From: Chiloscyllium plagiosum | Taxonomy: Eukaryota | Assembly (NCBI RefSeq): GCF_004010195.1 | Contig: NC_057718.1 | Coordinates: 43,461,970-43,525,969, forward strand | Direction of reading: 5' to 3' | Length of the DNA: 64,000 nt | Program-made: the position numbers and the translations under genes | The notes under the pieces: generated by a model | What the model was told of the DNA's origin: nothing | Seen by the model: the letters and a program-made list of their open reading frames with translations, nothing else | Databases searched by the model: none | Shown here: positions 21,131-55,273 of the stretch, in pieces | How positions within the stretch are numbered: the first letter of the stretch is position 1 | How the letters are laid out: every line of letters begins with the position of its first letter

Positions 21131-21139
21131 GTCACCCAT

Positions 21140-27701: not shown

Positions 27702-27886
27702 AGTATGTTGGACTGTCACTTTAAGACTCTGATCACATGGCACAATAATATGATCATTAACCATTTTGGAGGGAATCAGCTTAGTCTCACTTGCTGCCCT
27801 ATAGAGAGAACACTTCATATAATCTATCTGCTACTATTGTTAAACACTGTTTCCTATCCTTCTTGAAATGTAATGCAAGAAAAAAA
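27702..27886 (+). mobile_element. 5' LTR of Gypsy element 1, followed by a decayed PBS at 27888-27898
   Basis: 27704-27817 aligns with 32000-32111 (about 78% by hand alignment; ctgtcactttaaga, ccattttggagg, cttgctgcc, gaacac). tagcaactagg resembles the Gypsy PBS tggcgacgagg after CpG decay. Confidence 0.8.
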
Positions 27887-28040
27887 CTAGCAACTAGGAT
27901 AAAACTGCTTCGAGATCCAGCAGATGAACCCACTGGTGCATCAACAAATAAACAGAATTGTGACCCTCACTTCAGAACCCAGAGGTACTTTGTTAAAAAC
28001 AACAGAAGAAATCATAGCCGTTACTGCTTCACCGAAACAG

Positions 28041-28505
28041 ATAGTCATGGAGTCACACATCATGGAAACAGACCCTTTGGTCCCACTCACTCAGGCCGAC
28101 CAGACATCCCAACCAGATCTAATCCCATTTGCCAGCTTTTGGCCCATATCCCTCTGAACTCCTCTTAATCATGTACCCATCCAGAAGCATTTTAACTGTT
28201 GCAATTGTACCTGCCTCCATAACTTCCTCTGCAGTTTATTCCATGCATGCACCAACCTCTGCATGAAAACGTTACCTCTCAGGTCATTTTTAAATCTTTC
28301 CTCTCTCACCTTATACCAACACCTTCAGTTTTGGACTCCTGCATGCTGGGAAAGAGACCATTTGTCCTAATATCCTATCCATATCCCTCATGATTTTATA
28401 AAGCTCTATAAGGTCACCCCTCAGCCTCTGAATCTCCAGGGAAAGAAAGCTCCAGCCTATTCAACCTCTCCTCACAACTCAAACTCTCTAGTCCCAGAAC
28501 ATTCT
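28041..28505 (-). mobile_element. CR1 3' end inserted in the Gypsy leader
   Basis: Reverse complement of the same CR1 3' end as 2540-2980 (catggaaacagaccctt...ataaggtcacccctcagcctct). Confidence 0.9.
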
Positions 28506-28764
28506 TGAAAATGGGTAAAAATAGTAAAGAATTTATATCAGGGAATGGTTGAACAATGCTGAAGAAGCTTTCCACATGCTTTATTCTGAAGGAACACTGC
28601 AACAAGTATCCTGCATAGAGGGAATTGTTTTGACCTATGGATGTAGACTCGAAAGAAAAGGTAGTCTCAAAAGTACCATGTCTTACAGGGAAGACATGAG
28701 GCAGTGTTCAAATTTTCATTTTGTATTATGCTATGCAAGCCTTTCCATTTAAAAAAGTAAGAAA

Positions 28765-30335
28765 ATACTGGTGTTGTACTACTGTATGATCAAAATACAG
28801 AGAGCTGAAACTCATACTATTCTATTCTATCCCATACTGAGATTCTATTATTTTGTTCAAGCTAACAAAATTGAAGCAGATAGGGTTGTCCTTGCATTTG
28901 TTAATATTATGGGGGGGGGGGAGCTTTTAAACTTCTGTAATGATTGGAACCATGTCAGGGTGAATCTCATTGACTATTAGATCCTTGATTGGGTGGTTAA
29001 CCCAGGTCAATCAGGGAGTCCTGGCTGACAGAAATTCACAAGGTCTTCTCAGTTGAGAGACTAGCTTTGAGCTGGCTAATCATTGCCCATTTTCAATGAA
29101 CATGTAAATAAAAGGTGACTTGGTGATAGGATATCAGCCTTTGTGCAGTTATTTCACCTTCTAAGGAGTCTGGCACAGCCAGAGAAACTAGATTTCAAAA
29201 CCAACAAAGAAATGGTAGGAACCCGACAGAACCATTTTCATCCAAACCATTGGTGATTAGTGAAAGGTTCAGGCTTCACTAACACAACCAACACAGTGCT
29301 TAATCTGTTTCCAAGCTTAGAAGAATTTTAAAGAAGTTAACAGAATATTATGAATTCAGAGACAACTAATCATGCTATCAGAGACAGACTGCCACGTGGT
29401 TTAAGATGTGAACTAATCCAGGAGAGATTACTGATGGAATGGAATCTGGACTTACAGAAAGCACTAGAAATAGTAGTCTTGATGGAACTAGTAGCTAAGG
29501 AGGCTTCTCAACTAATCTTGTGTATGAGTGTCAACAAAATGGTGGCTGAGAGAGTTCACGAAATGGCGGCAACGACGAGCACCAATGCAGATTAAAAACT
29601 GCCATCAGCATGCAAAAGCAGGCCGTGCAACAGCAAATTTATGTTGTAAAGAAGCTGCATGTAGAAACTATGAAACAAAGGGCACATTGACTGGGTTTGT
29701 TTGAGTATGAAACATCAATAGCATACAGCAAACGTACAGAAACCAAAGAGCGAAAACAAAATCAACACAGAACAAAAAGGACATTCGAAAACTAGACTAT
29801 AGTTCAAAGAGGAGTTGTTGTTAAACAAGCTGGCCATTGTTGGTGATACTAACTGATACTGGATTCCCTTACTGAAATGGCAAACCCATGAGCATGGAGG
29901 CAGACTCTGGTGTAGCAGTTTCACTGATACCTGTGGAACAGATGCAGCTGCGTCACATTGTGCTGCAACTCTCAAACGTTGCACTAAGAACATATAGAGA
30001 TGAAGTGGTGCCTTTAAAAGGTTGTAGGAATATGAATGTTCTAATATATGGTCAGTCTGAAGCTTGGCCTTACACATTACCAAAGGAAATCTTTAAGCTT
30101 TTTTAATAGGAACATGGTTGAAGAAAATAAAACTTAATTGGATGGAAGTAAATCACCTTTCAGATTCTGAGAGTGATCCGTCACAAATTCTAAAGAAACA
30201 TGCCATTTTTTCAATGGGGATCTGGGAAGCATGGAAATGATAGCTGTCAAGTTGAAAACAAAATATGAGAATCAAGCAAAATGGTTGAGTTGCAAGCCTA
30301 GATTAGTGCCTTATGCAATCGGACCAAAGGTTGAT
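28765..30335 (+). mobile_element. Gypsy element 1: gag, aspartic protease and start of RT, all decayed
   Basis: YFVQANKI...IMGG / LLRSLAQPEK...HFHP.PLVISERFR...IRDRL..GLRCELIQERLL..LDLQKALEI; double zinc-knuckle remnant ~29600-29700; MEADSGVAVSLI (D-S-G at 29903-29911); WLKKIKLNW; KPRLVPYAIGPKV. Confidence 0.92.
28936..29156 (+). mobile_element. Solo LTR (221 bp) nested in gag
   Basis: TG...CA termini, AATAAA at ~29107, flanked by acttc/ccttc; removing it rejoins gag as AFKLLRSL. Confidence 0.85.
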
Positions 30336-31842
30336 GGAGAAATCTAAGCATGTAAGAAGTGTGAATCAAACCAGGATAGCACTTTATTAAGCCATACAAT
30401 TAATCTGCTTGAGAAGATTCATAGTGATAACCACACCTGTGACCTTGGTAATTCAAGAGTTCATCTGATAATTGCAGCCTTGCTTATGACCTTCAAGCAA
30501 AAGCTTAATGATCAGGAAACACAGAATAATGATACAGCCATCTTGCATTGTGAAATTAGCAGATCAGATACAGCAGTGCAATGGATAGAAGGATCCACTC
30601 GATTTCAGCTTGCTGCCAAGTTTGAAGTGAACCATCATTGAGATGGTTATTCATGGGCCTAAACCAGAAGATAGTAGTAGATATACTTGAGGTGTTGGAG
30701 ACCAACAAACCTGTGCTGCCTTGAAAGTGAGTACTATTCTGGTACTTCAGAAGGGTTTCAGAGCAAGGGAGCTGACGAAGGCAACACCATCACTCTACAC
30801 TGTGAACTTGCTAAGCCTGATCCTCCTATAGAGTGGAAAAATGAGACTGCGGTATTTCATCTCAGTGTCAAGTACAAAGTAAACAAGTGGGTTCTGTTGC
30901 TGAATTGTCTGTCTGCAATCTGAAACAAGAAGATGCAAGAGAATATGCCTGTGATTCAGAAGATCAACACACCCCAGCTCCACTTAAAATAAAAGAAAAG
31001 CCAGTGGTGTTCATTAAATCTTTGGATACCATTGTTGGGCAAGGGAGAGGAATGATTACACTGGATTGTGAATCTGAATAAAGCATGATGTGGTTCTTGC
31101 TTCAAGTGACAAATCTGAATGACTACATGCTGGAAAAGCACTTTGTTTTATTGTACATGATCTGAATAAAAGTGATGAGTTAGTGACATAGGCACCAGTA
31201 GAGCAAGTGCCAAGGTTGTCATCCCACATCTGAACATCAGAGTTTCAAAAAGGCAAAAGAGCACAAAGATTAAAAAAAGCAAAAAGGCACCTTTTAAATG
31301 CACACTTTCTTATGAAAGTATTACTGGACAGGGCTGTTAGTAGAAGGCAATGAATGACTTGAGGTATTCAATGTTGGCCAAAAATACATTCTTAAATTAA
31401 AGAAATAGCTCTTTCAGTTATTGGAGAAGTAACCTCAGTTTGAAAGCCTCATTGATGGTGAAAGAAAAACTGGCAGAAATCACAAAGCAATGGAAAAAAG
31501 TGGTGGTGATAGTGGGTGAAGAGATTGTACTAAACTGTGTACCTCTAAGCCTGTTTCTTTAGTGCAGTTGCTTAAAGATGACAGAGGAATTAACAAACGT
31601 AACATGTGAAATATCTCAGCAAAGGACTATAAACAAATTTATAATTCATCAAGTCACACAAAGTACTTGAGAGAGTATGCATATGAAACAGAGACTTCTA
31701 AAATGTTTTTTTAATAGTGGTGGTAAACCAACACAAAAACTGAAGAGAAAGATACTGCTGTTTTTAAATGTGAAACAGAATAGCCAGCAAAAAGTTAGTC
31801 TGAAAATAAGGGAATGGCCAGAAAAGCAATGAGAAAAATAAA
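30333..31842 (+). pseudogene. OBSCN: Intronless obscurin-like tandem I-set Ig domain retrocopy fragment (about 7 domains, first and last partial)
   Basis: TFKQKLNDQETQNNDTAILHCEISRSDTAVQW; EMVIHGPKPEDSSRYT*GVGDQQT; EGNTITLHCELAKPDPPIEWK; GSVAELSVCNLKQEDAREYACDSEDQHT; EKPVVFIKSLD..MITLDCE; FKCTLSYES; GEEIVLNC..SKP; EEKDTAVFKCETE. Ig call is firm; OBSCN rather than OBSL1/titin is from recalled repeat style. Confidence 0.8.
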
Positions 31843-31981
31843 CAGATGCCTGAGGTCCTCTGACAGCCATACCAGAACATTGACATCTTCCAGAACACCT
31901 GACCTCTAGCTGTTATGTATATGATTGCAAATATTGTGAATTGTTCTCATTGCAGCAACCTCTGATATAAAGGGGGAGGGA
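31843..31981 (+). mobile_element. Gypsy element 1 integrase C-terminal tail and polypurine tract
   Basis: ccagaacattgacatcttccagaacacctgacctctag can be read as a CpG-decayed RYPER.R.PPERLDL* pol ending (inference); PPT aaagggggaggga at 31969-31981 directly precedes TG. Confidence 0.75.
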
Positions 31982-32115
31982 TGTTTTATATTATGTAAAT
32001 ATGTTGTGCTGTCACTTTAAGAATCTGACCATATGCAAGATGTTGATGTCATTGGCCATTTTGGAGGAAATCAGTTTAGCCTTGCTTGCTGCCTTGCAGC
32101 GTGAACACCTCCAAC
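31982..32115 (+). mobile_element. 3' LTR of Gypsy element 1 (3' part lost or interrupted)
   Basis: Begins TGTT right after the PPT; direct repeat of 27704-27817. Confidence 0.8.
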
Positions 32116-34189
32116 TATTTACCAGAATGAAATAAGCTTTGGAATTTGCAGCCAAATCTTGGATTGGAGGCTCTACAATGGAATGGCCAGCAATGAACTG
32201 TCCTGTCCAGAAAAGTAAGTGTTAAACTGCTGTGTCAGTACTTTAGGACCTTGGAGCAACCTTGTGATGATGTCACAGAGCTTTTCCCACATTTCTTACT
32301 ATTTTTCTCACTGGGAATAATTAGCACAGTGTGGGCGGAATTAGGAAAGAGAGAGAAAAAGAGGAAAACACACAGAGCTAGGCTGAACCTTGAAGTCTAG
32401 CCATTTGAAAACCAGCGTGTCGAGCATACTGTCTAAAGTTAGGCATGAAAGTTCATGGAATAGTGTTTTAATATTGTATCAAGTGAGATTAAGGCCTGAC
32501 ATAGACTTGAATACCATATATTGTAGCATTGAGTCTTATTAGATCTATGATATAGAGAAGCCCAAATCTGAAGACAGTCTCTGACCTTGCCTCCTTATTG
32601 ACTAGTCTATCTTGAACCCAAACTTGTGGATGTGAGATAAAATCAGATTATGTCAGACAATGGATAATATAGAAGCCCAGGTAACTGTAGGCCATCTACT
32701 ACTCACAGGAGATAGAAAGCTGTGAAGCTAGCAGGATTTAGCAATGCTATAGGCCATTCAGGCCTGCAACAATGGATAAGTGTTCTCAGGTAGGAGAATT
32801 CCAGAAGCAATCCTAAGCTAAAAGCCTAATTATTCAAATGATTCAAAATTAATTTATGTCCAGTTTTGCACCAGTTGGGTGCAATTAAACAACTTATTGC
32901 TGGCTCACGCAAGGGTGGGTAAAGGAAATTTCAACTCAGCTGGATATATTGACAATATTTTTCCATCTTCTATGCCTTGACACTAAGATTAACAAACATA
33001 ATGTAAAATATATGATTAATTTACGGATGGAAGTTTAAGGTAGAAAGCATCATCTGATTTCCACTATGGTAATACCATTTTACAGCAATATGGAAAACCA
33101 GAATAGACCATAACCATAAGAGTATTTTTTTTTGTTTCAAAATGCTGTTATATACCAAGTTGAAAATATTATGGTAATGATCTGTATAGAATGTAATGTG
33201 GAAAATTTATTTTTAGTGGAATAGAGCCAATGAAAATATGCTCCAACACTGACCTTAGTTATTTATACGATATATTTTGCCTGATTAAACCATGCTACAA
33301 ATATATATGCAATATTTATCTAAAATCCTCAGTTCATGAAAATTTAAATGCTATGTCACATTTTTAGGGAAAATAGTTTATCAAGAAATATTGCCTTATT
33401 AGAATAGTGATATTTGGCTTTGAAATTACATTTGAGTTTCTCTTCTTCGATAGAGACAATTTTCTCCCAGTAAATAAACTGTCATGCCACTTGTTATATA
33501 TTGTTGAATTCCTCATACTCCGAGGATTCCACTGATATGAAACATGTATATGTTAGATTGGTACTGGTATCTTTAGTGGGCTGAGTAGGACAAATGTGTT
33601 TCTTCATGGCTGCAATAATGTGATAAAAGGAAATTGGCTGTTCATCAGCTGTTGGTTGTGTTAAGACAGTAGAGATGGTAAGCATCTTTTGGTTACTCAT
33701 ACCAACTTTATACCAATTGACTTTCATTTTTCATTGTTTCCTGTGTAACTGATAACACATTAAATGCATAACAATATTTTGATAAGAAAGCTGTTGCATA
33801 GGTTATCCATTTCTCCAGACCTTTATTATATGTCATCAAGACTGTAATTAATTTGCATTTGTCTACAAATTCTCAATGATGCTTTTAAAATTTATAAATT
33901 TGTTTTCATTCAAAATGAATAAGTAAATGCACTTCTCATATTCATGAGAGTAAGTTTCTACGATGACCACCTGGCATCTGATAATCTTAAGTATCTTCAA
34001 AGCATTCCAGACAGAGGCTTGGGCTGACCATTCTTTGGCACCAGAATGTGATATGGATAAATCAGTTCTTCATATTTTGAGCTAACATTTATATGTTAAA
34101 TCTTTGCATTTAATTTAAACATTGCTTGGGTAATGCTCTTTTTCTCTGCTGCGTATTTTCTAAACAAAGGTGATGTTGAATTGAGATCA

Positions 34190-34680
34190 CAGAAAGTGAT
34201 GATTTAATGAGATTGTCATTGAACCAGCAATTGAGATGCCAAAAACAGTAAGTTTTAGAATATGGGTATGAATCTCACCGTGGCTGCTTGTGGAATTTGA
34301 ATTGATTTAATATACGAGAAATTCAAAACTACTCTCAGTAATAATGATTTGGAGATGCCGGTGTTGGACTGGGGTGTACAATGTTAAAAATCACACAACA
34401 CCAGGTTATAGTCCAACAAGTTTAATTGGAAGCACACAATCACCTGATGAAGGAGCGTCACTCCGAAAGCGAGTGTGCTTCCAATTATACCTGTTGGACT
34501 ATAACCTGGTGTTGTGTGATTTTTAACTCAGTAATAATGACTAGGAAGCCATTTATGATTATGATAAAAGACATCTGCTTCACTAGTGCTGTTTAGGGAA
34601 GGAAATCTGCCATCTTTAAATGGTCTGGCCAATTGATGACTAGACTGAAGTGTCTCACCAGCAAGACATGCCCATGAGAA
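34190..34680 (+). mobile_element. tRNA-derived SINE interrupted by a palindromic mini-element
   Basis: ggaatttgaatt..., cttcactagtgctgtttagggaaggaaatctgccatc, same family as 16732. Confidence 0.65.
34348..34526. mobile_element. Palindromic Penelope-terminal-repeat-like mini-element
   Basis: Inverted arms ~34384-34438 and ~34473-34527; ctcagtaataatga duplicated on both flanks; CTGATGA...GAAA core at 34444-34468. Confidence 0.8.
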
Positions 34681-34689
34681 GTGACAACA

Positions 34690-36950
34690 CTGTGGTATAC
34701 ACATAAGAGCAAGTTGCTCTCCAAGTCCTCAATATTGATTCCAGATCCCATGAGTGTTTCCTCTAATTCCCATTGATTTCAGTTTTACTAGGGCTCCTTG
34801 ATGTCACACTTGGTCAAATGCAGCCTTGAGGTCAAGGTGGTCACTCTTACCTCTAAGATTCAGCTGTTTGTTTCATGTTTGAATCAAGGCTATAATGAGG
34901 TCAGGAGCAGAGTAATCCTGGCAGATATCAGGCTGGGTTTCATGAGCAAGTTGTTGCTGAGCAGGTGCTGTTTGATAGCACTGTTGATGGCACCTTCTAC
35001 CACTTTATTGATGATTGAGTGTTGAGTGATGGTATGGTAACTGGCCAGGTTGGATTTGTCCTGCTTTTTGTGTGCAGTACATAGCTGGTCAATTTTCTGA
35101 ATTGTTGAGTAAATCCCAGTGTTGTAATTGCACTGGAATAGGTTGGCTCAAGTGCAGCAAGTTGTGGAGCGCAAGTCTTCAGTACTATTGCCAGAATGTT
35201 GTCAGGGTCCATAGCCTTTGCGGTAACCAGTGCCTTCAGCTGCTTCTTGGTATCATTTGGAGTGAATTGATTTGGGTGAAGACTGGCATCTGTGATGCTC
35301 GGGAACACTGGTGGAGGCTGCGATGGATCATCCACTCAGCACGACTGACTGAAGATTGTAGCAAATGCTTCAGGCTTATTTTTTGCACTGAGATGCTTGC
35401 CTCTTTCTTCCATTTTTGAAGGTGTGGATATTTGTGGAACATTCTTCTACAGTGAGTTACATCGATTGATGTAAAATGGTGGCAGAGTAACAGGGCTGTG
35501 TGCGGGTTCTTGCCCAGAGCCCATCTGCTCCTGTCTGCTTTCCTTCCTTATTTAACTTTGCCTTCTGCTCTTTTCTTTCACTTTATTTTCCTTTCATTTC
35601 AGTTTTTTTTCTTCTTTTCTGTGGCACATTGGTTGCGGAGTGGCGGATATCGCTTCTCCCAGCGATAGAAGGTGATGACAGTAGCACCGAGGTCATTCTC
35701 CTGGCATTTGGGACTATTGGCAGTTGTTGCAAAGTTCCTCCAGTGATTGGGCACGGCAGCACCGGCAGAAGAGAACTCTTCAAGGTGGCGGCACCGGCAA
35801 GGTGTAATCAGCCACTGGAGCAGAACTCGGAGCTCGGTGGCGGCCTGGCCTGGCAGCAGAGCCAGGTACTCTTGGTTGCGGGGCAAATGTGGGTTCAGCA
35901 ACATTGGCAAAGTGAGCCCAGTGGTGAAGAAATGGCACCGAAAGTGGGGCAACTTTTACACTGGTGGGCCTGGCGCAGGTCACCACCAGACAGTGAGATG
36001 GTGGAGGTCTTCTTTGAGCCTAGGTGTTGGCATTGACTGAATCAGAAACATTGATATTCTGAACTTCTCATTAATTTATTTTTTAAATTTATCCCTATGA
36101 CCTATAATGCTGGATTATTTATTTCTTTAATTTTCTAATTTTTTTTGTTTCCTAAGAATTTGCTAAGTATCTGTACCCAGCTACATTGGTAACTATGATA
36201 GTGCTGTAATGCAGTGATTGAAAACGTTTCATTTGAGTATACGTGACAATAAAGCTAATTCAGTTCAATTGACTACCACAATTCATGACTGGGTGTGACA
36301 GGATTGGAGGACTTAGCTCTGAACAATTAGTTGTGGGATCGCTTAGCTCTGTCTATCACTTACTTCTTATGCCTGGTGTGCAAGTAGTCTGGTTTGCTAG
36401 CTTCACCAGGTTGACATCTCATTTTTAGGTATGGTGATGTTAGTTTCATGTTCTCTTGCACTTTCCTTTGAAACAGGGTTTATCTCCAGCCAGGTTGGGA
36501 ATGGTTCAGAGGGGGATATATTAGACCATAACGTTGCAGGTTGTATTGGATTATCAATTTCCTACTGTTTATGGGACACAGTGCCTCCTGGATGCCCAGT
36601 CTTGAGTTATCACATCTGTTTGCATTCTATCCTATTTAGCATAATGATAGTGCCACACAACATGATGGGGTGTATTCTCAGTATGAAGATAGGACTTCAT
36701 CTCCACAAGGTCTGTGTGATGGTCAATCTTACTGATGCTGTCATGTACAGATGTATCTGCAGCTGAACGATTAGTGAATATGAGGTCAAATATTTGTTTT
36801 CCTCCTGTTAGTTCCCTCATCACCTGCCATTGACCCAGTCTAGCAGCAACACCCTTCAGGACCCGACCTGCTCAATCAGTAATGGAGCTGTTGAGCCATT
36901 CTTGGTGATGGACATTGACATCTCTACCCAGACTGCATTCTGAGCATGCG
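34690..36950 (-). mobile_element. Degraded CR1/L2-clade LINE ORF2 (endonuclease to RT), interrupted at ~35462-36268
   Basis: KKQLKAL...KAMDPDNILAIVLKTCAPQLAA; TGGKQIFDLIFTN...VHDSISKIDHH...VVWHYHYAK. Confidence 0.85.
35462..36268 (+). mobile_element. Unclassified ~800-bp CpG-rich insertion with a non-LTR-type 3' tail
   Basis: Splits the LINE; GC/CpG-rich centre; ends tacgtgacaataaagctaattcagttcaattg. Confidence 0.5.
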
Positions 36951-37089
36951 CAAGGAGCAGTGTGCCATCGGCAGTATCAGAATTATATTCAATTTCAATT
37001 AGCAACTTCATGACCTGTCATATTGTCTACTTAATTATTACCGTCATGCTGGAGAAATCAGCCCTTGTACAATAAAGAGCGCGTGAAAG

Positions 37090-40383: not shown

Positions 40384-40556
40384 CAGAGGAACCTCGATTA
40401 TCCGAAGGACACGGGCGGGAATATTTCTTTCGGTTAATTGAATGCTGGATAATCGAATGCTGGATAACATAGTTTAGCCAAGCATCAGGACCTTGCGATC
40501 TTGCCAGACAATCCAAAATTTGGATAATTGAATGCTGAATAATCGAGGTTCCTCTG
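40384..40556. mobile_element. Tc1/mariner-pogo/Tigger-like MITE, 173 bp
   Basis: Perfect 18-bp TIR cagaggaacctcgattat; TA on both sides (40382-83, 40557-58); internal gaatgctg(g/a)ataa repeats. Confidence 0.92.
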
Positions 40557-40559
40557 TAC

Positions 40560-41682: not shown

Positions 41683-41699
41683 TATCTCTCTCTGCAATC

Positions 41700-44140: not shown

Positions 44141-44141
44141 T

Positions 44142-44167
44142 ATCAAATCAAATCAAATCAAATCAAA
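44142..44167. repeat. (ATCAA)n microsatellite
   Basis: Five copies seen directly. Confidence 0.9.
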
Positions 44168-45195: not shown

Positions 45196-45896
45196 TATCC
45201 CATTATTTATTCCTTGATACACTATTCTACATATGGTTACTCTTCAGGTACCAGAACACAACTCTCACAAGTGATGTCCTGCCTTGTCTCTCGCCCATCT
45301 ATATCTTTATTCACCCACAACTCAAAGGTTGCAACAAGGTTAATTTGAAAAGAACCCCTTCCCTAGTGGATAATCTTTCTCCTAAATCCAGTGAATTTAT
45401 GCATTAAAAATGAGCCAATTTAACTAGGCTTTGTTGAATTAACAAAAATAATAAGTTTATTAATTTCTACATGCTAGAACAAATACACAACACACACACA
45501 TACAGGTTAGAAATAAGAGGTGAATCTAAAAAAAAAACAAAAGTTACATGGACCACTCTGATTTGTTTGTGAAGAGTGAATAACTGAATGTTGTAGCCAT
45601 TGCCAGGGAGGGTTTTGGTAGTGTTAATGTCTGTAGTTGAATGGTCAGTTTCACAATTTTTAATTTTGTAGACTGAATTCTCTTTGTCCTGATCCCTTTA
45701 TTAACTGATCTGTAACATTTGGAATGAGGCAGGGTCTCTTGTTTGGCTGTTAGCTATCTGCCTTCCAGCACTTGGAGTGAGAGAACCTTAAATGATATAA
45801 TTATTGTATGGAGTTCACATGGGAAAGTTTTATCTTGCATCGGTTATAAACTATTTGTAGTTGTGAGAAATCATAGTCGAGTCTGATGTTTCCTTG

Positions 45897-46091
45897 ACAC
45901 TTTGTGTGTTACATTTCATTGCTCTTTCACTCTCTCTCTTCAGCCTGATACCCTGTGAAAAAGAATCCTGACACTCTATCCATTGAGTTCAAATTAACCT
46001 TCCTTTGCTCCAATAACGTTAACAGACTAAAGTGTCTCCCTGTCCACTTTGTGTGTTTCATTTCATTGCTCTCTCTTTCTCTTCAGCCTGA
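45897..46091. repeat. ~50-bp imperfect direct repeat pair
   Basis: cactttgtgtgtt(a/t)catttcattgctct...ctcttcagcctga at ~45898 and ~46045. Confidence 0.8.
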
Positions 46092-48481
46092 AATTTACTT
46101 TATACCAGTCATTTTTCTTCGCATTATGTCTCTTCTAAAGAAAGACACAGGGTTTTGACTCTGATCATGACAGCAGCCAATAATGCACTCAACTTGAATC
46201 ATCCAGATTGACTGGTAGGGTGCAACATGAAGGCATAGCCCCATGTTCACTGCTGACTACTTCTCCACATTATTAATCTCACCACATTTGTCTGGAGACT
46301 GAAAGAAGTTTTGAAAAAAATTACATTTGTGAAACATTTTATTTTCATTAATCAATGTTTTACGTAACAGAAAAAATGGTTGCATAAAGTACTCTCCTTT
46401 TTTAATTTTCTTCCTCATTTAAATGGTCATTTTGTTTTTCCTCGATAGTTTGTACTTATTACAATCTTTGCATTTTTGCAAAGTTTTTGCCTGCACATCT
46501 TTTAGAAGGAGTTGTAGTAGGTGTCAGAACATTCTGAAACACGGTCATTTTTCATTCTGTGGATTCTAACGTAATTGACACATTATAGATGAAGAACATG
46601 GTAATGAGGTAAATAAATAGACGGAAACCATTGCCAGCAGTGCCACATGTGACAAGATTTTTATGATATTCACATGGGATTGTTTTATCTTGCATCAGTT
46701 ATAAACTATTGGTATCTCTCTCTATAATATTAAACAAGTATTAGGATTGCACAAAATAGACTATTCTGCTCTTAATGAATTAAGTGATTATTTAAGAGTA
46801 ATATGTGGGAAAGTCCAGCATCTCTGTGAATGAGGTGTAAATGGTAAAATCTGAAAAGTATATGTCAGAGATAGTGAAGGAAGGAAGGGAGTGGAAGGAA
46901 GGAGGGACATTTTGTAATTGCAAGCATGAAAAGAAGGCAGCAGGAAATGGAGGAGGTAAATAAAGAGTAACCAAGTGTAAGCAGATCATGTCTCAGTGTC
47001 TGCTGCTGGGTGTGGGAAGAGTTCGGGTGTGGACTGGGAAGCACTTCAGCTGTCTGTTAATGTTGTTGGAGCAAGGGAGGGTTTAATTTGAGCTCAATGG
47101 ATACAAAGTCAGGATTCTTATTCACTGTGGGACTAGACACAGATGTAGACTCTGAGCTGGCTGAAGACATGAAGTTTTAAAAAGATCAAAGAAATTCTAA
47201 ATGGAGACCATCGTGACATGAATAGAAAATGATAGGACGGTTAGTGCAAGATGACCTTCGAGATGATTATGTCAGCCAGAAGGGGGAGCCTAGCAACAAC
47301 TCTCTTGCTACAGGGTGAATAATGTGGGATAGACGAATGGAAATGTATTGATAGGAAGGAATGGCTGACAGACTGGATCTGTCCTGAAAAGGTAGATCGT
47401 ACAAATCTGTATGTGGACTGGAGAGAGAGAGAAAACTAAGCTTTGAATTATGTGTTTACTTCTTTGAAGTGCTGTACCATTCTCTTTTTTGAAGCCATTT
47501 GATTAGGTCATCAACCCTCCATCACTTTTCAGGTTTAGACAGAACTACTGTCAATTGAGCTTTATAACAACGGGGAATGATGGCTTGTTGCAACCAGAAT
47601 GCAACCAGTGGTGTGAAAAGAATTTGAGGGCAACCACAACATCTTACTAGGCAAAAGTTGGGGTTATGCTATCACCTCTGAGTTAGAGGGATGGTGGCGG
47701 GGTGCAGTCAGCTCTAAAGCACTTGGTTTTGCAAGAACTTGCTCACGGTGGACTAGGGGACTATGGATGAGATGGGGTGAGGTAACAGAGAAGACAAAAC
47801 CTTTCCTGTCAGGGATTGGGGAGGCAAGTCAATAACTAGTTTAAGAGATGTAGAAAAGGGGGCAATAAATAGACTCTGTTGGAAAGTCAACCATGTACTG
47901 ATTTGGAATTCATTACTTCTCATTGGCCTGGGGTATACATTCTATGGTGAAGCAAGGGTGTTTGCTTCTAGTCTTGATGTAAGTTTCTTAAGTTCTTGCT
48001 AGTGAGAATTTCACTTCTGGCAGAGTGTAGTACTGCATTCATTGGAGGTTTTCTCTGCTGGAGAATTCCCAGTATGCTGTCCCAGTGATGCCCTCATGTA
48101 GCCAATCATGTCCAAGCAGCCAATCACATTAACAGATTTTAAAAAAGCAGTCAAAAAGAAAGCAAAATGCAACAAAACAAAATCACTTCCCCTCCATCCC
48201 CACCAGCTCTGAGCCCCTGTTATAGGCTGCACTGGTTTAAGAAGTGAGGGCAGCAACCTCTCAAGGATAGTTAGAGATGGACAAAAAGTGATGGCGTATT
48301 GAGTAATAGCTACACTTCATGAATGAGTAAAAAACACTTTGAAGTGTTTATGTAGGACAAATGAAGGTTAACGGCATAGCCATGGAGTGAAGATACAAGC
48401 TAAAATATTGTCAACTTTCTATTAAAAATAGCTTAAATTAGCTACGAATTATTAATTTAACATTATTCCACAGTTATGTTA

Positions 48482-48800
48482 GGGGAGGTGATAGCCTAGT
48501 GGCATTATCACTGGACTGTAAATCCAGAGACCCAAGTCATGTTCTGGGCACCCAAGTTTGAATCCTTGCATTGGCAGATGGTGGATTTGAATTAAATCAA
48601 AAAATTCTGAAACTAAGAGTCTAGTGACTCTGAATTGTTGATTGTCTAAAAATAAATCTGGTTTGCTAAAGTCCTTTAGGGAAGGAGACTGTATTCCTTA
48701 CCTGGTCTGGCCTACAGGTGACTCCAGACCCACAACAAACTATCCTCCAGGCAATAAATGCTAGGCTAGCCAGCGATGCCCTCATCCTGTGAGCAAATAA
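48482..48800 (+). mobile_element. tRNA-derived SINE
   Basis: ggaggtgatagcctagtggcattatcactggactg...gtttgaatcc...tagggaaggagactg..cttacctggtctggcctac. Confidence 0.85.
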
Positions 48801-48807
48801 AAAAAAA

Positions 48808-49755
48808 TTCCTAGACGTGATGGTAAAGAGAACACCGAACGGAGAATTCACCGCAAAGGTATATAGGAAAGCCACACACACAGACCAAGTCCTGAACTAC
48901 GAAAGCAACCACCCCAACACACACAAAAGAAGTTGCATCAAGACACTGTTCGAAAGGGCCACAGCACACTGCAGCACACCTGAACTGCAAAAAGAGGAAG
49001 AAGAACACCTATACAATGTATTCGCCAAAAACAGATATCCCCGCAATTTCATCAACAGATGCCTAAGGGAAAGACAATGGAATGAGGACATGCCACAACC
49101 CAAAGAACTAGCCATGTTACCATACATCAAGAACATTTCTGAACTGACAGCAGACTACTACGACCACTAGGACTCATAACAGCACACAAACCAGCTACCA
49201 CTCTCAGACAACAACTCACCAGGACAAAGGACCCGATACCCAGCATGAGCAAAACCAACGTAGTGTACAAACTCCCATGCAAGGACTGCACAAAACACTA
49301 AATAGGACAAACAGGAAGACAGCTAATGATCCGTATCCATGAACACCAACTAGCCACGAAACGACACGACCAGCTATCCTTAATAGTCACACATATAGAC
49401 AAGCAACATGAGTTCGACTGGGAAAACACTACTATTATAGGACAAGCCAAACAGAGAACAGCCAGGGAATTCCTAGAGGCATGGCACTCATCCACAGATT
49501 CTATCAACAAACACAACGACCTGGACCCAATATACTGGCCACTGCAGCAGACAGCTGGAACTGACAACCGGAAGCGGCAGAGACAAACCACTATAAATGC
49601 CAGAGGAAACAACACAGAAGCGCTTCACAGGAGGGTCCCAAGCACTGAGGATGTCACCTAGATAGGGGACGAAACGTCTGCAACACAAATTCCTAGCTCG
49701 GCGAACAGAACCACAACAACGAACACCCGAGCTATAAATCTTCTCACAAACTTTG
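48808..49755 (+). mobile_element. 5'-truncated Penelope-like element: RT C-terminus, GIY-YIG endonuclease, terminal repeat
   Basis: FLDV...VYRKATHTDQVLNYESNHPNTHKRSCIKTLF; NVVYKLPCKDC.KH*IGQTGRQL.IRIHEH; REFLEAWHS. Confidence 0.95.
49642..49681 (+). ncRNA. Minimal type I hammerhead ribozyme motif
   Basis: GCA-CUGAGGA-(stem II GUCaCCUA/UAGGgGAC)-GAAAC-GUC-UGC; intact core, stem I GCA/UGC, palindromic ACGU stem III. Confidence 0.8.
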
Positions 49756-49856
49756 AATAAAAAACTTTTTTTCAGAGTAAGTTGTACTGTTGATCAAATT
49801 CTGTGAATTGTGTGACCATTGTAAACCAATGTACAGCATTTCATGGGATATCTAAT

Positions 49857-50152
49857 ATGGTGGCACAGTGGCTAGCACTGCTGCCTCACAGCACCAAGGA
49901 TCCGGGTTCAATTCCAGCCTTGGGCAATTGTCTGTATGGAGTTTGCATGTTATCCCCATGTCTGCATGGGTTTCTTCTGAGTGCTTTGGTTTCTTCTCCA
50001 AGTAGAAAGGTGTGCAGGTCAGGTGGATTGGCCATGCTAAATTGTCCATAGTTTTAGATGCATTAGTCAGAGGGAGTTGGGTCTAGATGGGTTGCTCTTT
50101 GGAGGATTGATGTGGACTTGTTGGGCTGAAGGGCCACACTGTAGGAAATCTA
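49857..50152 (+). mobile_element. HE1/V-SINE-like SINE
   Basis: A box tggcacagtgg, B box ggttcaattcc, V-domain-like ggagtttgcatgttatccccatgtctgcatgggtttc, CR1-like tail. Confidence 0.9.
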
Positions 50153-51160
50153 ATCAGGATATGGGAGAAAGACCTTGGGAAGTTGTTGCTGATTTCATGA
50201 TTACTATCTTAATTAGTGATTGGACTGGTGTGAGGGGAAATGTAGAGCCATGCCCTGTGCTGATAGACTGTAATGTCAAGTTCTCCCTGCCAGCCTGTAC
50301 ATGTCCAATTTATGTAAAGGCACAGTCAGTTTTGGGGTGAACATGATAGTAACCACAAAATTTAACATATTGATTTCTCTATCTGCAGCCATCCTTAAGT
50401 TTTGTTCATGTAACTTCTCTAGAATGCTTATATTCACTTGCATTAAGATATTAAGAATTACGTTGCAGCTTTTTTTTTAAAACTTGTTTTCTGTCCTGTC
50501 AATATCACTATTTAGTTTGAGGATTCAGTCAAAGTACTGATCAGGCTGTCACATGATATTAAATTACCTTTGGAATTCCAAGACCATTTGCTGTTTTATT
50601 TATGCATATGTCTGCTGCTGTATCTCCATAATGGTATCAGTCTGTCAATCTGGCTTCGTTTTTTCGAACTCTTTTTGACGCTTCCTGAAAAGCCATGTTC
50701 AGAATCTTCCTTAATATCCAGGAACAACTAAATATCGTTGCTGTAATTTGTGATCAAATATGTTATTATAAATCATAATTTATGGGGGTACATAATAATT
50801 ACCTCTGCTACATTGTTATTCTTTCACTACTTATTAAATAGCTACTTTGATGTAGAATGCTCTCTAATAAGAATGAAAAAAAAAATTGCTTTCAATCTAA
50901 GATCACAAATGATATAATTATTATGGAAAATGTGGAATGAACATTATGACTTGAGAAAAGGAGTTAGCATTCATTGATGTCCATGTATTTTTAAAGTTCT
51001 ATTTGTACAGTATTGAAAGTAGATTTAACTTCAATAGCATTGACTAATTTTTTGAAATTTACATATATGCATATATAATTTGAGAGGGATTTGACATGTT
51101 TCCTGTGTCACCTGTATATGACTGCAGTAATGTGACAACAAATCAATGTTTCTACTCAAG

Positions 51161-51193
51161 TAAAAACATTATTTCCGGACTTGATTGATACAG
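51161..51193 (+). CDS. Candidate 33-nt exon (xKTLFPDLIDTx)
   Basis: tttctactcaag acceptor, CAG|gtatct donor; phase 1 end is compatible with 51317. Confidence 0.25.
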
Positions 51194-51316
51194 GTATCTA
51201 ATACAGAACGAAATCAGATAGAAGTACACATAAGTGAAGGTCAATTAGAAATAATGTTTCTTTTAAATATGAGTGGAAGATTGATTGATTCTGTCTATTG
51301 ATTTGTTTTATTTAAG

Positions 51317-51422
51317 ACACAGAACTCTCGAATCAGTTTCTTCATAAATGGCTTGGAGGAAGTTTCCATTTACCTCTTCTCATTGAACAAATTGCAGATG
51401 CAACCACCAATGTTGTTATCAG
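51317..51422 (+). CDS. Candidate 106-nt exon (xTELSNQFLHKWLGGSFHLPLLIEQIADATTNVVIx)
   Basis: T-rich acceptor gatttgttttatttaag, donor AG|gttggg, open protein-like frame in unique AT-rich DNA; gene not recognised. Confidence 0.4.
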
Positions 51423-52201
51423 GTTGGGCTGAGTCGAAATGGTAAAAGTATAACAAGCTTTAAAAACTGCAAGTTAATCATACAGTCCCAGTAGACAATA
51501 CTGCTATTAAATCTGTTTACATTAATTAGCAGCAGATTTACAAACATTGTGGTCTGATCCAGAGGCGCAGATAGAAATCGTGAGCCCCCTTACTACTCCT
51601 AGCCCAGAGCCCCGGCTGTACTCAGGCTCTTGGCCCCCAGCCAAAGTGCAGTGGCCCCACCACCTAGAACCCTGGTCATTGGGCGCTGTTGTTAGTCCCT
51701 GTACTAGGCCCTGGTTGGATCCATGCCTTGTGTTACTGTGTGAATTCTTCTTAGTTGTAGTCAAAAAGGAGCTAGCAGTAGAGTCACGTTCCTTGCACTA
51801 CTTAACCCTATTCAAACTACTTACAAATAGTTTATGTTTAAAATGCTTTTCATTGAGAATGTTTTGCTCTAATAATGCACTTTAGAAAGTAATGGAAGTT
51901 GTGAAAGAGGTTTGGTTGAATTGGGTGCTTGAGATGTGTAAAGCATATTGATTTTTTTTTCAACTCTGACAACTGGCTTTGAATTGATTTGTGGAGTTCA
52001 GTTATTTTCAGATATTTTCAAATAAATGGACATGAGTTAATTAGGATTTTGCAACAAAATTGTTATTTATAAACTTACTCTTTAACTGGTTACTTAAATA
52101 CAATGTTAATGGAAGAGTAAATATTATGCTCACAAGTGGTACCACAAACGATTCTAGTAGTCAGACTGGACCAACACTTATGGGACAAGCACTACGTGTC
52201 A

Positions 52202-52580
52202 TGTTAAAGGTAATAGTCTCAGAATGACCTGTTCTACGACCTGTGGTACGATCTTATACTCCACAACCACCGGATGAAGGAGCATCCGATTATCCGAAAG
52301 CTAGTGCATGCAAATAAAACTGTTAGACTGGTGTTGTGTGCTTTCTAACTCTGCCCATTAGGGATTGATTAACTCTGGGTTTGTTTATTTAAAATAGTAA
52401 TTTATTAAAACAGTAAAACAAGTTACGAAGCAAACATTATAGTCACCCAAATGATTTCTGTATATTTAGCTTGCAGGTTCAAATCAGACTTACTGCCAGG
52501 CAAACTTGCAACATTGTTTACACTCAGCACATGGAGTCCCTAAAGATGGACTCTTTTAAAGACAATGTACACATACAACA
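52202..52580 (-). mobile_element. 3' LTR of Gypsy element 2, with a mini-element inserted at ~52220-52350
   Basis: Follows the PPT (ttcccctcctctcc on +, 52581-52594) and starts TGTTG on minus; shares taatttatt..aaaaca.taaaaca, caagtta.gaagcaa, agcttgcag, gcacatg and terminal acaaca with 55066-55273. Confidence 0.75.
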
Positions 52581-52700
52581 TTCCCCTCCTCTCCGAAGAT
52601 AATTTAACTGTTCACAATAACAGTGAGCCTATGAGTCTCTGTAACATCTGGGTAATTGGCAGGTACATCCAGACCTTGCGATGGTGGTTTTGTCTGGAGG
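52581..52700 (-). mobile_element. Gypsy element 2 integrase tail and PPT
   Basis: Minus frame TTIARSGCTCQLPRCYRDS* resembles a CpG-decayed TRSGR...P.RY.D pol ending; PPT ggagaggaggggaa. Confidence 0.75.
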
Positions 52701-53395
52701 TGCCTATCATTTTCACAGTAATCAGTGATATTATCTCTCATTCCTGTTTGTGTGTTAAGTTTTCCTTTCATGGACTGAAGTTGCTGTTCCAGAATTTGCT
52801 TTATCTTGATGAACTGCAGCCAGGATGGTTCTTTCCTGATTATCTATTGATTGATTTCATTCCTCAAGCTGTTTGAAGTGGATCTTCTTGGCATTTATTG
52901 TTCTGTTTTTAAGAATTTCCAGCTCATTTTAATGCTTCTGGTTTTAGATCCTGGATTCTTCTGATTCTATTCTATCAACGTGTTAGCCTTCTGTTGGTCC
53001 AAAATATGTTTCTCGTTAATGACCTGCTCTCTTAACCTGAGTAATAATATTCTCAGAAGTCAAGTAACACCAGGTTATTGTCCAACAGGTTTATTTAAAA
53101 TCACAAGCTTTTTGAGCAGAGCAGCCCTTCGGATTTCTGACTTTGCTCATCCCAGTCCAACACTGGCATCTCCACTTCAATAATGTTCTCAAGTATGGAT
53201 TTATCGTAAGCTAGTTATTCAGCCTTTTCCTCTTGAACTTTAACTTTTCTCTCCGCAGCAGTAGGGCTGAGATTTTAGCTCCTCTAATTCAGAAGAAAGT
53301 GAAGAGTTCCGTTCTTCTTTATTCAATTCTTCAAATGTTTCTTGAATAGTGTGCTGCAGTTTGTGTTGTGTCTCTGATGTTTGGCTGATGCAATA
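52700..53395 (-). pseudogene. Decayed coiled-coil coding fragment of unknown origin inside Gypsy element 2
   Basis: SETQHKLQHTIQETFEELNKEERNSSLSSELEELKSQ / TAAERKVKVQEEKAE*LAYDKSILENII / RLREQVINEKHILDQQK / RIQDLK.KH*NELEILK / KQILEQQLQSMKGKL; no RT, RNase H or integrase motifs. Confidence 0.55.
53056..53178. mobile_element. Penelope-terminal-repeat-like mini-element with a 13-bp TSD
   Basis: aataat(a/g)ttctca at 53043-53055 and 53179-53191; aacaccaggttattgtccaacagg...cccagtccaacactggcatctcc. Confidence 0.85.
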
Positions 53396-53419
53396 GATTG
53401 TTATGAATGTTAGGTATTA

Positions 53420-54800
53420 ACATTACAAGGGTAAAAGTGGTAGTATTAGACATGCTGGTGTAATTGTATTTGCTGGTCCCAGCAGTATTAATAGTGCGGA
53501 CTATCAATGAAATTTACTTACTTGCACTTTGAACAGTATGTAGTTTTTCCACAATATTGACCTTGTGAAACATGTGTTCGCACTTTTTGTCCAACTAGGT
53601 GGATTCTTAGATTCTAGTTCGTCAGCCAGTTTATGTGTGCACCTCCGATGGAACACCAGATGTTCTTTATTATAGTCTGGAGATACTCCTTTGTGTGCTC
53701 TCTTTGGGTTAGCTCTTTGTAGCTGCATCAATCTTTTTCTCTGGTGCACTTCTCAGCTATGTGACTTGGAAAATTAATTGAAAGCTGGGTATTTTCTTGG
53801 TGCATGCAGAAGGCCGCAGCTTCCTCATGTCTTGCTATGTTTGGGCATTCTAATGATGGTGTCAATTTTTGAATATATACTTTAGAATCTGTAACTTTTG
53901 TTGACCTGTGAAGATCACTTTGTACATCCATTCTTCAGGAGCTCTTTGACACTATATCACATAGGAAGCAATGGCCTAATTGTATTATCACTGGATCCAT
54001 AGACCCAGGTAATGTGGTCCCGGGTTTGAATCCTGACCTGATAGATAGTAGAATTTGAATTCAATAAAAATCTGGAGTTAGGAGTCTAACAGTGACAACA
54101 AATCCATTGCTAATTGTTGGAAAAACCCATCTGGTTCACTAATGTCCTTTAGGGAAAGAAACTGCCATCTTTACCTGGTCCGGCCTACATGTGACGTCCG
54201 ATCCATAGCAATGTGGCTGAATCTTAATTGCCCTCTGGGCAATTAGAGATGGGCAATAAATGCTGATCTAGCCAGTGACACCATCCTCCTGTGAATGAAT
54301 TTTTAAAAATTTGATTTGTCTAGCAAATTCTTTTGGAAAGCTTCCATGTGAGTGGGTGTGATCATTGACTTAACAGTCCTGATTGGTAGCTCTACATTTT
54401 TTTCAAAGAACCATACAATGAACCCTTTTCTCTGCATCTGCTCATGAAGTGTTCTATGAATTCTGTAGGCTTCTGTTGAAATGACATGTATTCCAGACAA
54501 TGAAGATGAATATTTAATCTGACTCTGAAATGGTCTACTAATGTGTCACTTTTGATCCATACATTTTGGAGATATTTTAAACTGTTCAGCTGATAATCCA
54601 GACTTGTTAGGTCTGTCACCTGTCAATCCCAATTACTAGGTAAACCTTAATGGCTTGCTTTTCTGCACTGAACTCACCTGAGTCTGAATGCTGCTTAAAT
54701 ATTTTAAATTCTGTTAAGAAGTCTGTTATGTTCTAATTTAAATGAGGAAATTTTGTTGATATTCTGGCAATGTGATTTTGGCCTTCCCTTGCTTGCTATC
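53420..54800 (-). mobile_element. Gypsy element 2 gag with zinc-knuckle remnant, interrupted by a SINE
   Basis: EFKIFKQ...KQAIKV; DHFRVRLNIHLHCLEYMSFQQKPTEFIEHFMSRCREKG; MEAFQKNLLDK; YSVKELLKNG; T*GSCGLLHAPRKYPAF. Confidence 0.8.
53962..54302 (+). mobile_element. tRNA-derived SINE inserted in gag
   Basis: Same family as 48482 (ggttcactaatgtcctttagggaaagaaactgccatc). Confidence 0.88.
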
Positions 54801-55065
54801 AATCTGGAACACACACTGATATTTTGCTTTTCTCAAATGTATTGAACAGGCCTTGCAATGGGAATTTGTCTGTTTACCAGAAAGCTGTGTTTTCAACACA
54901 GTCCAACACTGTAATGAAGAAAGACATTGAGGCTTGTCTCATGCATTTTAGCATAACTGAAGACTGACAAGGATGTCTTTCTCCATTGGCTAACTTGCTT
55001 ATTCATGGTTCAAGCGCAATAGGCCTCAACAGCATGATATTTTTTATTGTTGTTTTTCATGACAA

Positions 55066-55273
55066 GTTAATGATAATAATCACTCATTAAGGATTGAATA
55101 GTCCAACGTTTTAATTTATTTAAAACAATAAAACACATGGCAAGTTATGAAGCAAGTCTTACACCAACTAAGCTTGCAGATCCAGAGCAAATTAAGTTCA
55201 CGGCAGGGTCATCACATTGTATCCACACTGCACATGTAATCCTTCAAAGGTGTCATTCTCTTAACAAACAACA
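55066..55273 (-). mobile_element. 5' LTR of Gypsy element 2
   Basis: Diverged direct repeat of 52202-52580. Confidence 0.7.

Follow-up and report, generated by a model that had tools for sequence, protein, structure and literature searches.

The analysed window, a stretch of 64,000 nucleotides from Chiloscyllium plagiosum, contains two LTR elements, one on the forward strand (element 1) and one on the reverse strand (element 2), for both of which paired LTRs were confirmed. The LTRs of element 1 are identical at 91 of 114 aligned bases (score 121; maximum of 200 shuffles 45) and those of element 2 at 130 of 182 bases (score 91; shuffle maximum 45), and in both elements a PPT could be read from the sequence directly 5′ of the 3′ LTR. 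The gag of element 1 is homologous to the gag-pol of an intact Gypsy relative (L020), that of element 2 to those of L002-L004 and of 37 K02A2.6-like proteins. Both LTR elements are real, old members of Ty3/Gypsy and belong to different families. The original prediction that their LTRs and gags are dissimilar was borne out: the cross scores between the LTRs (25-26) lie within the range of shuffles, no significant protein match was found between the two elements (best E 0.34), and the gag of element 2 scored 191 on the family-B profile (null maximum 43.5) but only 46 (null maximum 54) when compared with the family-A reference, which suits element 1.

Element 1 begins with a 5′ LTR (27690..27886), the start of which is uncertain within 27690-27702 and of which 27701-27816 matches the 3′ LTR; at this edge the related organisms B and C both carry different letters over 27687-27700. 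It is followed by a decayed PBS (27888..27900), with 10 of 13 bases identical to the site preceding gag in L020. A high-copy interspersed repeat (28040..28500, no strand assigned), with other copies in the window and a read depth more than 10,000 times the background, was inserted later, as was a forward-strand solo LTR of a third family (28936..29156), located in gag, with TG...CA ends, flanking 5-mers agreeing at 4 of 5 positions and a read depth about 1,000-fold or more above background. The gag itself (29161..29784) is broken and convincing to about 29560 (score 162 against the gag-pol of L020; null maximum 48, n = 15), and a candidate N-terminal piece at 28849-28914 stayed within the null (score reached by 5/15). 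Protease and the start of RT follow at 29879..30344 (score 133, null maximum 39; on another profile 41.8 versus 32.1, 0/50 shuffles) and are in frame with the cargo: one reading frame with a single stop continues from RT into Ig sequence, the two codons at 30339-30344 are compatible with both readings, and the contig of a relative ceases to match at 30341. Downstream of the cargo, 31840..31981 comprises a probable pol tail, a 3′ untranslated stretch and the PPT (31969-31981, read directly). The tail, a tentative assignment accompanied by a rise in read depth, did not exceed the null, its score being reached by 6 of 50 shuffles and, in a second test, by 49 of 50. The 3′ LTR (31982..32111), identified by its match to the 5′ LTR, is cut short at about 32111, and a search of 32100-36000 did not recover its remainder (score 28, shuffle maximum 34); target-site duplication was therefore compared for element 2. 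All comparisons with reads and contigs of three species refer to element 1.

Element 2, on the reverse strand, extends from its 5′ LTR (55060..55273) to 52197, and its candidate target-site duplication agrees at 3 of 5 bases. No PBS was recognised. The gag (53630..54759) is broken, contains a zinc knuckle and is interrupted by a SINE-like insertion (53970-54290); it matches L002 (tblastn E 2.6e-12), and its pieces scored 191 and 74 on a profile of 37 proteins (null maxima 43.5 and 36.6). A candidate protease start near 53500-53459 was not above the null (13/50). The interior (52720..53440), with about 0.6 kb of extra sequence and a later insertion at 53046-53175, is helical or coiled-coil-like in the sense of the element. 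It is followed by a pol tail and PPT (52581..52694; tail 52694-52635, PPT 52594-52581 read directly), the tail scoring 28.2 versus a null maximum of 25.6 (0/30) when the search was confined to the final 150 positions of the profile, and by the 3′ LTR (52197..52580), which matches the 5′ LTR and carries an insertion at 52254-52353. Of the predicted common layout, namely LTRs, gag, pol C-terminus and PPT, the LTRs, gag and PPT are thus present in both elements and the tail in element 2; element 1 in addition keeps protease and the start of RT, and its own tail did not rise above the null.

The cargo of element 1 consists of 1.48 kb of tandem obscurin-like Ig domains in sense orientation, fused in frame to the start of RT. 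It matches Pfam I-set (E 2.6e-5), its period-3 signal was reached by none of 300 control stretches, and its translation contains about 5.6 Ig domains at domain-length spacing without introns; in human OBSCN, each Ig domain is described as generally occupying one exon (PMC12812942). Element 1 lacks about 800 codons of the reference L020, on which the cargo scored 42 (null maximum 47); together, these results imply that pol was replaced and not interrupted. The cargo is flanked by neither a poly(A) run nor a duplication, although age could have erased both. Capture of host RNA is well supported for this element, and it is very probably an LTR-mediated obscurin retrocopy. The predicted exchange of the enzymatic core for sense-oriented foreign coding sequence therefore holds for element 1, while for element 2 it stands in so far as the interior is not recognisable as pol, with a period-3 signal that only weakly suggests foreign coding sequence.

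Along the cargo (all on the forward strand), the Ig domains are apparently arranged in an order rotated with respect to human obscurin, with the second half of one domain placed first and its first half placed last. The start (30339..30480) corresponds to the C-terminal half of a 2dku-type obscurin Ig domain (PDB 2dku residues 47-92, 17.7 bits), whereas a different C-terminal half within the cargo scored 2.1 bits on 2dku. The end (31716..31822, possibly reaching about 31845) corresponds to the N-terminal half of a 2dku-type domain (residues 15-46/47, 19.0 and 20.4 bits), whereas a different N-terminal half scored 3.4 bits. Between them, 30481..31000 holds two Ig domains most similar to later human obscurin domains, with matches to 2e7b/2yz8 at about 30562-30735 (E 0.0035) and to 2edr at about 30875-31003 (E 0.0067); over 30857-31081, titin Ig domains matched with a lower E-value than obscurin (4e-6). 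The remainder (31001..31715), beginning at a candidate back-splice junction near 31000, comprises three further Ig domains judged by the spacing in the translation, which we tentatively take to be those preceding the 2dku domain in human obscurin; a 36-residue piece of it had no match in PDB. With 2dku listed as Ig29 and 2e7b/2yz8 and 2edr as Ig32 and Ig34 (table in PMC3859903), the best human obscurin structures along the cargo, 2dku 47-92, 2e7b/2yz8, 2edr and 2dku 15-47, read Ig29, 32, 34 and 29, an order derived from comparison with human structures that share about 40-50% identity. The two cargo ends share no overlap at the DNA level (P 0.84). The 3′ end may extend by about eight codons, of which 13 of 21 bases resemble the 5′ start by eye; such an extension, differing from the 5′ start, would suit two paralogous domains.

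The reading which we favor, at a probability of roughly 0.55, is that element 1 is a broken Gypsy element in which most of pol was replaced by obscurin Ig sequence copied once round a circular RNA; that the template was circular is put at the same slightly better than even odds. According to this proposal, RT would have copied the 3′ LTR, PPT and pol tail and then switched to a co-packaged, back-spliced obscurin circle of six exons, with its entry point midway along an Ig exon. RNase H would have degraded the template behind RT, so that on its return to the entry point no template would have been left, and RT would have switched back to the element RNA at the start of the RT domain. The product with both LTRs would then have been integrated, and further copying in trans may have been possible, with little amplification visible. 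A single round ended by RNase H would leave both cargo ends abutting within one domain, as is seen here. Mouse circRFWD2, with 33 pseudogenes flanked by MMERVK10C-int (PMC4897178), offers a precedent for retrocopied circles. Against this reading stand the required skipping of at least one exon between the 2dku and 2e7b domains, the lack of a PDB match for the piece from the three middle domains, the possible eight-codon 3′ extension, and the titin Ig domains, which scored better than obscurin in one stretch (see above) and in another search. Donor expression likewise speaks against it: the text of a study on mouse heart describes no circRNA from Rbm20-dependent Obscn exons (PMC5959250), and the single paper searched on this point showed no germline expression of obscurin. 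A single-cell RNA run, in which 0 of 8.3 million reads aligned, carries no weight for or against the circle.

The main rival to the circular template assumes that a linear obscurin mRNA was copied from a shark gene which natively contains a duplicated block of Ig domains, the cargo being colinear with its donor. The number of Ig domains in such arrays is described as differing between isoforms, at 31365 the cargo is matched by two to three further loci in each of the three species, and the possible eight-codon 3′ extension unlike the 5′ start would also fit; however, under this explanation it would be a coincidence, at about 3% by a rough estimate (about 15 of 530 codons), that both ends fall at residue 47 of one domain type, and we consider such a native duplication improbable. 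A further possibility, less probable still, is that RT entered a linear mRNA, skipped in register to an Ig repeat further downstream in that transcript and stopped at the RNase H cut made at its entry point. Cutting by RNase H would bring the loop to a close where it began, Ig ends provide microhomology, and several switches within one product are documented in Tan et al. (2016; PMC5131818), but the internal junction apparently lies within about 7 codons of a domain boundary (judged by eye), which a free jump would achieve about once in ten cases. An origin of the Ig sequence as a retrocopy made by a LINE, or as a piece of titin, that landed within a pre-existing LTR element is very unlikely: the lowest E-values in two structure searches belong to titin and retrocopy numbers in vertebrates are described as following non-LTR content (bioRxiv 10.64898/2026.06.26.734816), but pol is missing rather than split, neither a poly(A) run nor a duplication surrounds the cargo, and obscurin structures were matched by four separate stretches.

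Element 2 is an older pol-replacement, independent of element 1 and in another Gypsy family. On the pol profile its interior scored 40.1 and 39.1, values reached by 1 of 20 and 3 of 20 shuffles, whereas real pol decayed to the level of the gag of element 2 yielded medians of 98-214 and a lowest score of 62 (80 trials). The interior thus failed to match pol at a power at which real pol was detectable, which makes host-RNA capture plausible here as well, and with decayed real pol scoring at least 62 the second cargo was not shown to be element-derived, the outcome that would have contradicted the original prediction. A second host-RNA capture is the somewhat more probable origin. Of 300 controls, 3.7% reached the period-3 signal of one half of the interior and 22% that of the other half. 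Protein searches with decayed window frames gave no match among 238 and none among 71 candidates, and a further search gave one match, to an inserted repeat; PDB searches of the decayed frames gave nothing useful and the Atlas no match at 0.9, and scans of viral contigs returned one unrelated RNA-virus contig and otherwise nothing. For a putative likeness of the interior to CLIP1, look-ups by sequence gave no match, and it is a lead only. A tetraspanin likeness (Pfam E 0.0012-0.0016, 19 bits versus a cutoff of 32; Atlas 0.88) gained nothing when flanking sequence was added and is not followed by a membrane helix, and this reading is a weak one, to be treated as a lead only. One candidate for a decayed RT, a motif at 53382-53227, scored 40.8 on a four-sequence profile (null maximum 35.2) and then fell to the null with 37 sequences, its score being reached by 1 of 20 shuffles and by 4 of 40 random stretches; sequence of element 1 read in the wrong frame even gave 44 on this motif.

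The alternative that the interior derives from decayed or rearranged pol, or from the protein of another mobile element, appears rather unlikely. It could draw on the initial score of this RT-like motif, on the A-rich strand bias of the interior, which equals that of the element's own gag, and on the fact that the searches named no host protein. Against it stand the loss of the motif with the larger profile, the higher score of the wrong-frame stretch and the power control with decayed real pol.

Similar structures are known from other lineages. In the LTR retrocopies described by Tan et al. (2016; PMC5131818), internal ORFs are likewise replaced by host RNA between parts of one element, and sense orientation and in-frame fusion are common, as in element 1; some are described as non-autonomous elements with several insertion sites. 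In line with such retrocopies, the ORF is replaced rather than interrupted in element 1 (judged by L020) and in element 2 (judged by pol profiles), and neither poly(A) nor a duplication surrounds the cargo of element 1. In contrast to the elements reported here, the cases in the text of that study are young and include no cartilaginous fishes, and its main text uses neither "circular" nor "circRNA". Mouse circRFWD2 (Dong et al., 2016; PMC4897178) shares with element 1 the lack of poly(A) and the LTR-element flanks, and its non-colinear exons resemble the apparently rotated order seen here, but that study is restricted to mouse and human, concerns an ERV and not Gypsy, and calls the mechanism mysterious. 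Its account of these copies reports none with ends abutting after one round; in element 1, the back-splice junction is a candidate one. Crocodilian ERVs that captured nectin3 or KIT-ligand (Chong et al., 2014; PMC4299795) are described as old, non-mammalian and present in 6-9 copies, their spliced host cargo including Ig domains; there, the cargo replaces env or is added and the ORFs are under purifying selection, whereas the elements described here have lost pol and carry a dead cargo. Maize Bs1 (PMC7264820, PMC5408686) is described as having transduced host gene sequences in its own sense, like element 1, but as a plant element with pieces from several genes. Plant TR-GAG elements (PMC4350172) are described as short LTR elements with gag and without enzymes, still active, with a gag ORF only and no host cargo; element 1 instead contains protease, the RT start and cargo, and element 2 an interior and a tail. 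The shared layout by itself would thus represent known LTR capture of host RNA in a new lineage, and the rotated cargo is the new point which matters more.

If correct, the circular-template reading would bear on circRNA retrotransposition, the mechanism of which was left open (Dong et al., 2016; PMC4897178). Abutting ends inside one Gypsy element would point to template switching with RNase H as a ruler, and a countable prediction follows, namely that LTR-borne cargoes with a back-splice junction should have abutting ends. Within the reach of the literature searches, it would also carry circRNA retrocopies outside the mammals, and it would show that LTR elements contribute to shark retrocopies, which are described as tied to non-LTR elements in a recent survey (bioRxiv 10.64898/2026.06.26.734816). 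The fuller version, a circRNA fossil copied once round, with RNase H fixing its end point, in a genome with hundreds to thousands of LTR captures of host RNA, falls somewhat short of even odds; if it holds, shark genomes would preserve a record of ancient germline circRNAs in which the retrotransposition of circRNAs could be tested directly.

Both elements are products of known LTR template switching and require no dedicated class. The idea that amplified elements with host-mRNA cargo form a genome-wide class under selection for the retention of gag would be compatible with this explanation and is unlikely. It could point to the two cases in this window and to a cargo depth of 1.3-7 times the depth of the locus's own contig in three species, but the pair was chosen after the fact, and the claimed amplification, assessed for element 1 only, was not shown: besides its own locus, about two to three show 80% or more similarity to the obscurin cargo, at one diagnostic place (31365) in three species, compared with 14-21 contigs for the gag of element 1. 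Among the matches listed (24 of 160,442), no non-orthologous piece spans a cargo junction. Retention of gag likewise lends no support to such a class, as any template-switch product is described as keeping LTRs, PBS, PPT and flanking internal sequence (PMC5131818), and it is not confined to gag, with protease and the RT start also kept in element 1. According to a rough Poisson sum over 241 windows and an assumed genome size, about 1,000 or more such elements per genome would be needed for the pair to be unsurprising, and it is plausible that host-RNA capture is not rare. The two to three additional cargo-like loci fit extra copies and a duplicated donor block equally well.

In element 1, the Gypsy LTR element on the forward strand at about 27690-32111, the LTR pair is identical at 91 of 114 bases, with the 3′ LTR truncated at 32111; a PBS-like site shares 10 of 13 bases with the intact relative L020, and a PPT lies directly 5′ of the 3′ LTR. 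The intact gag-pol of L020, which is of the same family type, served as reference; L020 is one of three loci out of 86 that matched a Gypsy profile. Frameshift-aware alignment with it located gag at 29161-29784 (score 162, null maximum 48 in 15 shuffles) and protease plus the start of RT at 29879-30320 (133, null maximum 39). At 30345-31830 the score was 42, equalled by two of six shuffles, and no pol was detected there. The original prediction of kept LTRs and gag with a replaced pol core therefore holds for this element, but not the loss of the whole enzymatic part, since protease and RT start are retained. The alignment gave no confirmation of the predicted pol C-terminus; the stretch that we take to be the pol tail adjoins the PPT, and read depth rises there. 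A high-copy repeat, inserted later in the 5′ part, breaks the element, and a third-family solo LTR (28936-29156) was later inserted in gag. Animal-type Gypsy gag-pol was seen on three contigs filed in prokaryote genome bins (L020 3663-7454, L034 and L039), one copy being intact with LTR, PBS and PPT; these contigs are probably host DNA.

The cargo of element 1 (30339-31822; 1,484 bases) consists of tandem Ig domains in the sense of the element (Pfam I-set, E 2.6e-5), with a period-3 signal equalled by none of 300 controls. Apart from a single stop at the junction it continues the RT frame, and many stops and frameshifts disrupt it. In one contig of the X16 species set RT was matched and, among the matches listed, the match ends at 30341, which supports the RT/cargo junction. 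Domains are spaced about 235-265 bases apart and introns are absent; human OBSCN generally has one domain per exon, according to the accessible part of PMC12812942. The PDB matches were to titin and obscurin, with titin giving the lowest E-values in two of the searches. Four separate stretches match human obscurin entries, all on the forward strand: 30339-30470 (2dku residues 47-92), about 30562-30735 (2e7b/2yz8), about 30875-31003 (2edr) and 31724-31822 (2dku residues 15-46/47). In the portion of PMC3859903 available, these are numbered Ig29 (2dku, an alternatively spliced clone), Ig32 (2e7b/2yz8) and Ig34 (2edr). From the matches and this numbering it follows that the cargo runs from the second half of 2dku through later domains to its first half and, judged by these alignments, is in rotated order relative to the human obscurin structures. 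Presumably, 2dku lies somewhat later in obscurin than Ig29, yet before the other two matched domains. With the human structures as reference, its two halves meet at residue 47. Both cargo ends are specifically 2dku-type (17.7 and 19-20 bits), as the other cargo halves scored far lower (2.1 and 3.4). We assume that three Ig domains in 31001-31715 resemble, in order, the three preceding the 2dku domain in human obscurin; a direct PDB search with 36 residues from this stretch gave no match. No overlap between cargo start and end was detectable (score 19, equalled by 84% of 2,000 shuffles), and the 3′ Ig may, judged by eye, be up to 8 codons longer.

The replaced pol, the in-frame 5′ join and an order rotated relative to the human structures are observed; the mechanism is proposed. 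With a probability of roughly 0.55, we favor a back-spliced circular obscurin RNA, copied once round, as template. A six-exon circle would have been packaged together with element RNA; RT would have switched onto it in mid-exon and copied one full circuit, with RNase H degrading the template behind it, so that a return switch became unavoidable on reaching the point of entry. Retrocopies derived from circRNA with LTR flanks, as around this cargo, are a precedent (Dong et al., 2016; PMC4897178). Counting against a circle are the exon skipping it needs, the lack of circles from Rbm20-dependent Obscn exons in mouse heart (accessible part of PMC5959250), the fact that no OBSCN circle is named in the available part of a further circRNA paper, and that gonads are not mentioned in PMC3916441. 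A linear donor from an obscurin with a natively duplicated Ig block is rather unlikely, as the meeting of the cargo ends would be left to a chance of about 3% by our estimate. Less probable still is an in-register jump on linear obscurin mRNA, which would likewise close the loop but needs an internal junction near a domain boundary by chance.

The locus of element 1 is present in contigs of two related organisms; one contig reaches across 29230-32281 and shows 119 differences over 3,053 bases. Corrected distances were 0.04-0.05 between organisms, 0.24 for the LTRs of element 1 and 0.36 for those of element 2; therefore, if rates were even, each insertion must predate the splits between these organisms several-fold. 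At the edge of the 5′ LTR (27687-27700), a block of about 14 bases differs in both related organisms, with flanks only a few percent different; this amounts to a local exchange of several bases in a single lineage. At 80% likeness, depth in cargo bins versus own-contig depth was 6-27 versus 3.8-6.8 (X1), 29-66 versus 12-17 (X13) and 44-182 versus 30-37 (X16) in the three species sets. At cargo place 31365, another letter was carried by 2, 3 and 3 contigs, compared with 21, 14 and 21 at place 29413 in gag; copies more than 20% apart are missed, and one of the three X16 contigs at 31365 is probably the orthologue. The few cargo-like loci may represent the donor, additional copies or a mixture of the two. 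Among the matches listed, the comparison covers 40 of the 573 difference rows, 15 of the 564 joints and 24 of the 160,442 pieces.

Element 2 (reverse strand, 55273-52197) has LTRs identical at 130 of 182 bases and flanking 5-mers agreeing at 3 of 5. A short motif led to four metagenome contigs, three with long gag-pol ORFs, and from these to 37 relatives for a profile. Named relatives are echinoderms and a priapulid; the named full-length ones include no vertebrate, a sample biased by a query that was itself a relative from outside the window. LTR and protein comparisons confirmed that the two elements belong to distinct Gypsy families. On the profile, gag of element 2 scored 191 and 74, and the final 20 residues of pol 28.2 (equalled by none of 30 shuffles in a restricted search), so that the predicted pol C-terminus was recovered here. 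The halves of the interior (52720-53440) scored 40.1 and 39.1, equalled by 1/20 and 3/20 shuffles and by 4/40 and at least 5/40 random stretches. Real pol decayed to bracket the gag score gave medians of 98-214, with no trial out of 80 below 62; these values are somewhat flattered, as both source sequences belong to the profile or lie close to it. As the interior is at null level and decayed pol above it, the interior is not pol of its own family; nor is it pol of the element 1 family. An early RT-like match, considered as decayed RT, was due to chance. The coding signal is weak, a tetraspanin Pfam match was below cutoff, and there may be a resemblance to CLIP1; the interior may be CLIP1, tetraspanin or other mobile DNA. 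A third-family LTR piece (55323-55424) lies 50 bases outside the 5′ LTR and is like the 28936-29156 copy at 76 of 101 bases; its occurrence at both elements is probably chance, the family being very abundant.

The shared layout was thus confirmed in part and its interpretation partly supported. With assumed, unchecked inputs (genome size, 241 windows), the probability that at least some of the 241 windows would contain such a pair was 0.02, 0.08 and 0.38 at about 720, 1,440 and 3,600 elements per genome; since it is appreciable only at high numbers, host-RNA capture is probably not rare, as predicted. A genome-wide class of its own is not indicated, the layout being a standard outcome of template switching and of a known kind. 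Replaced internal ORFs, sense bias, in-frame fusions and secondary copying are described from flies to mouse in the accessible part of Tan et al. (2016; PMC5131818), and multi-copy ERV captures in crocodilians in that of Chong et al. (2014; PMC4299795). Further known systems, as far as the available text of the sources goes, are maize Bs1 (cited in PMC7264820 and PMC5408686) and TR-GAG, a category covering gag-only elements (PMC4350172). Among the papers listed by searches of largely open-access literature, none was on shark LTR-cargo retrocopies or non-mammalian circRNA retrocopies, and the putatively rotated obscurin cargo is probably a novel form of LTR-borne cargo.

Across the window old repeats are abundant and long ORFs absent, the longest having 229 codons. 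LINE remnants were seen at 1915-2313 (reverse transcriptase, E 2e-14) and 8241-8807 (endonuclease, E 1.5e-7). A fairly well preserved ORF remnant (48793-49760), without Pfam match at E 0.05, presumably resembles a Penelope element at its endonuclease end. A candidate host exon (51320-51425) has AG...GT ends and open frames, and a Pfam search gave no match. Short repeats in head-to-head or nested inverted pairs (34343-34529, 55591-55710, 56035-56272, 58343-58530) could form hairpins, and their family is also present as two insertions in element 2. Finally, 20534-21285 and 21921-22415 form an old direct duplication, 83% identical over two blocks; both copies contain a SINE-like piece.
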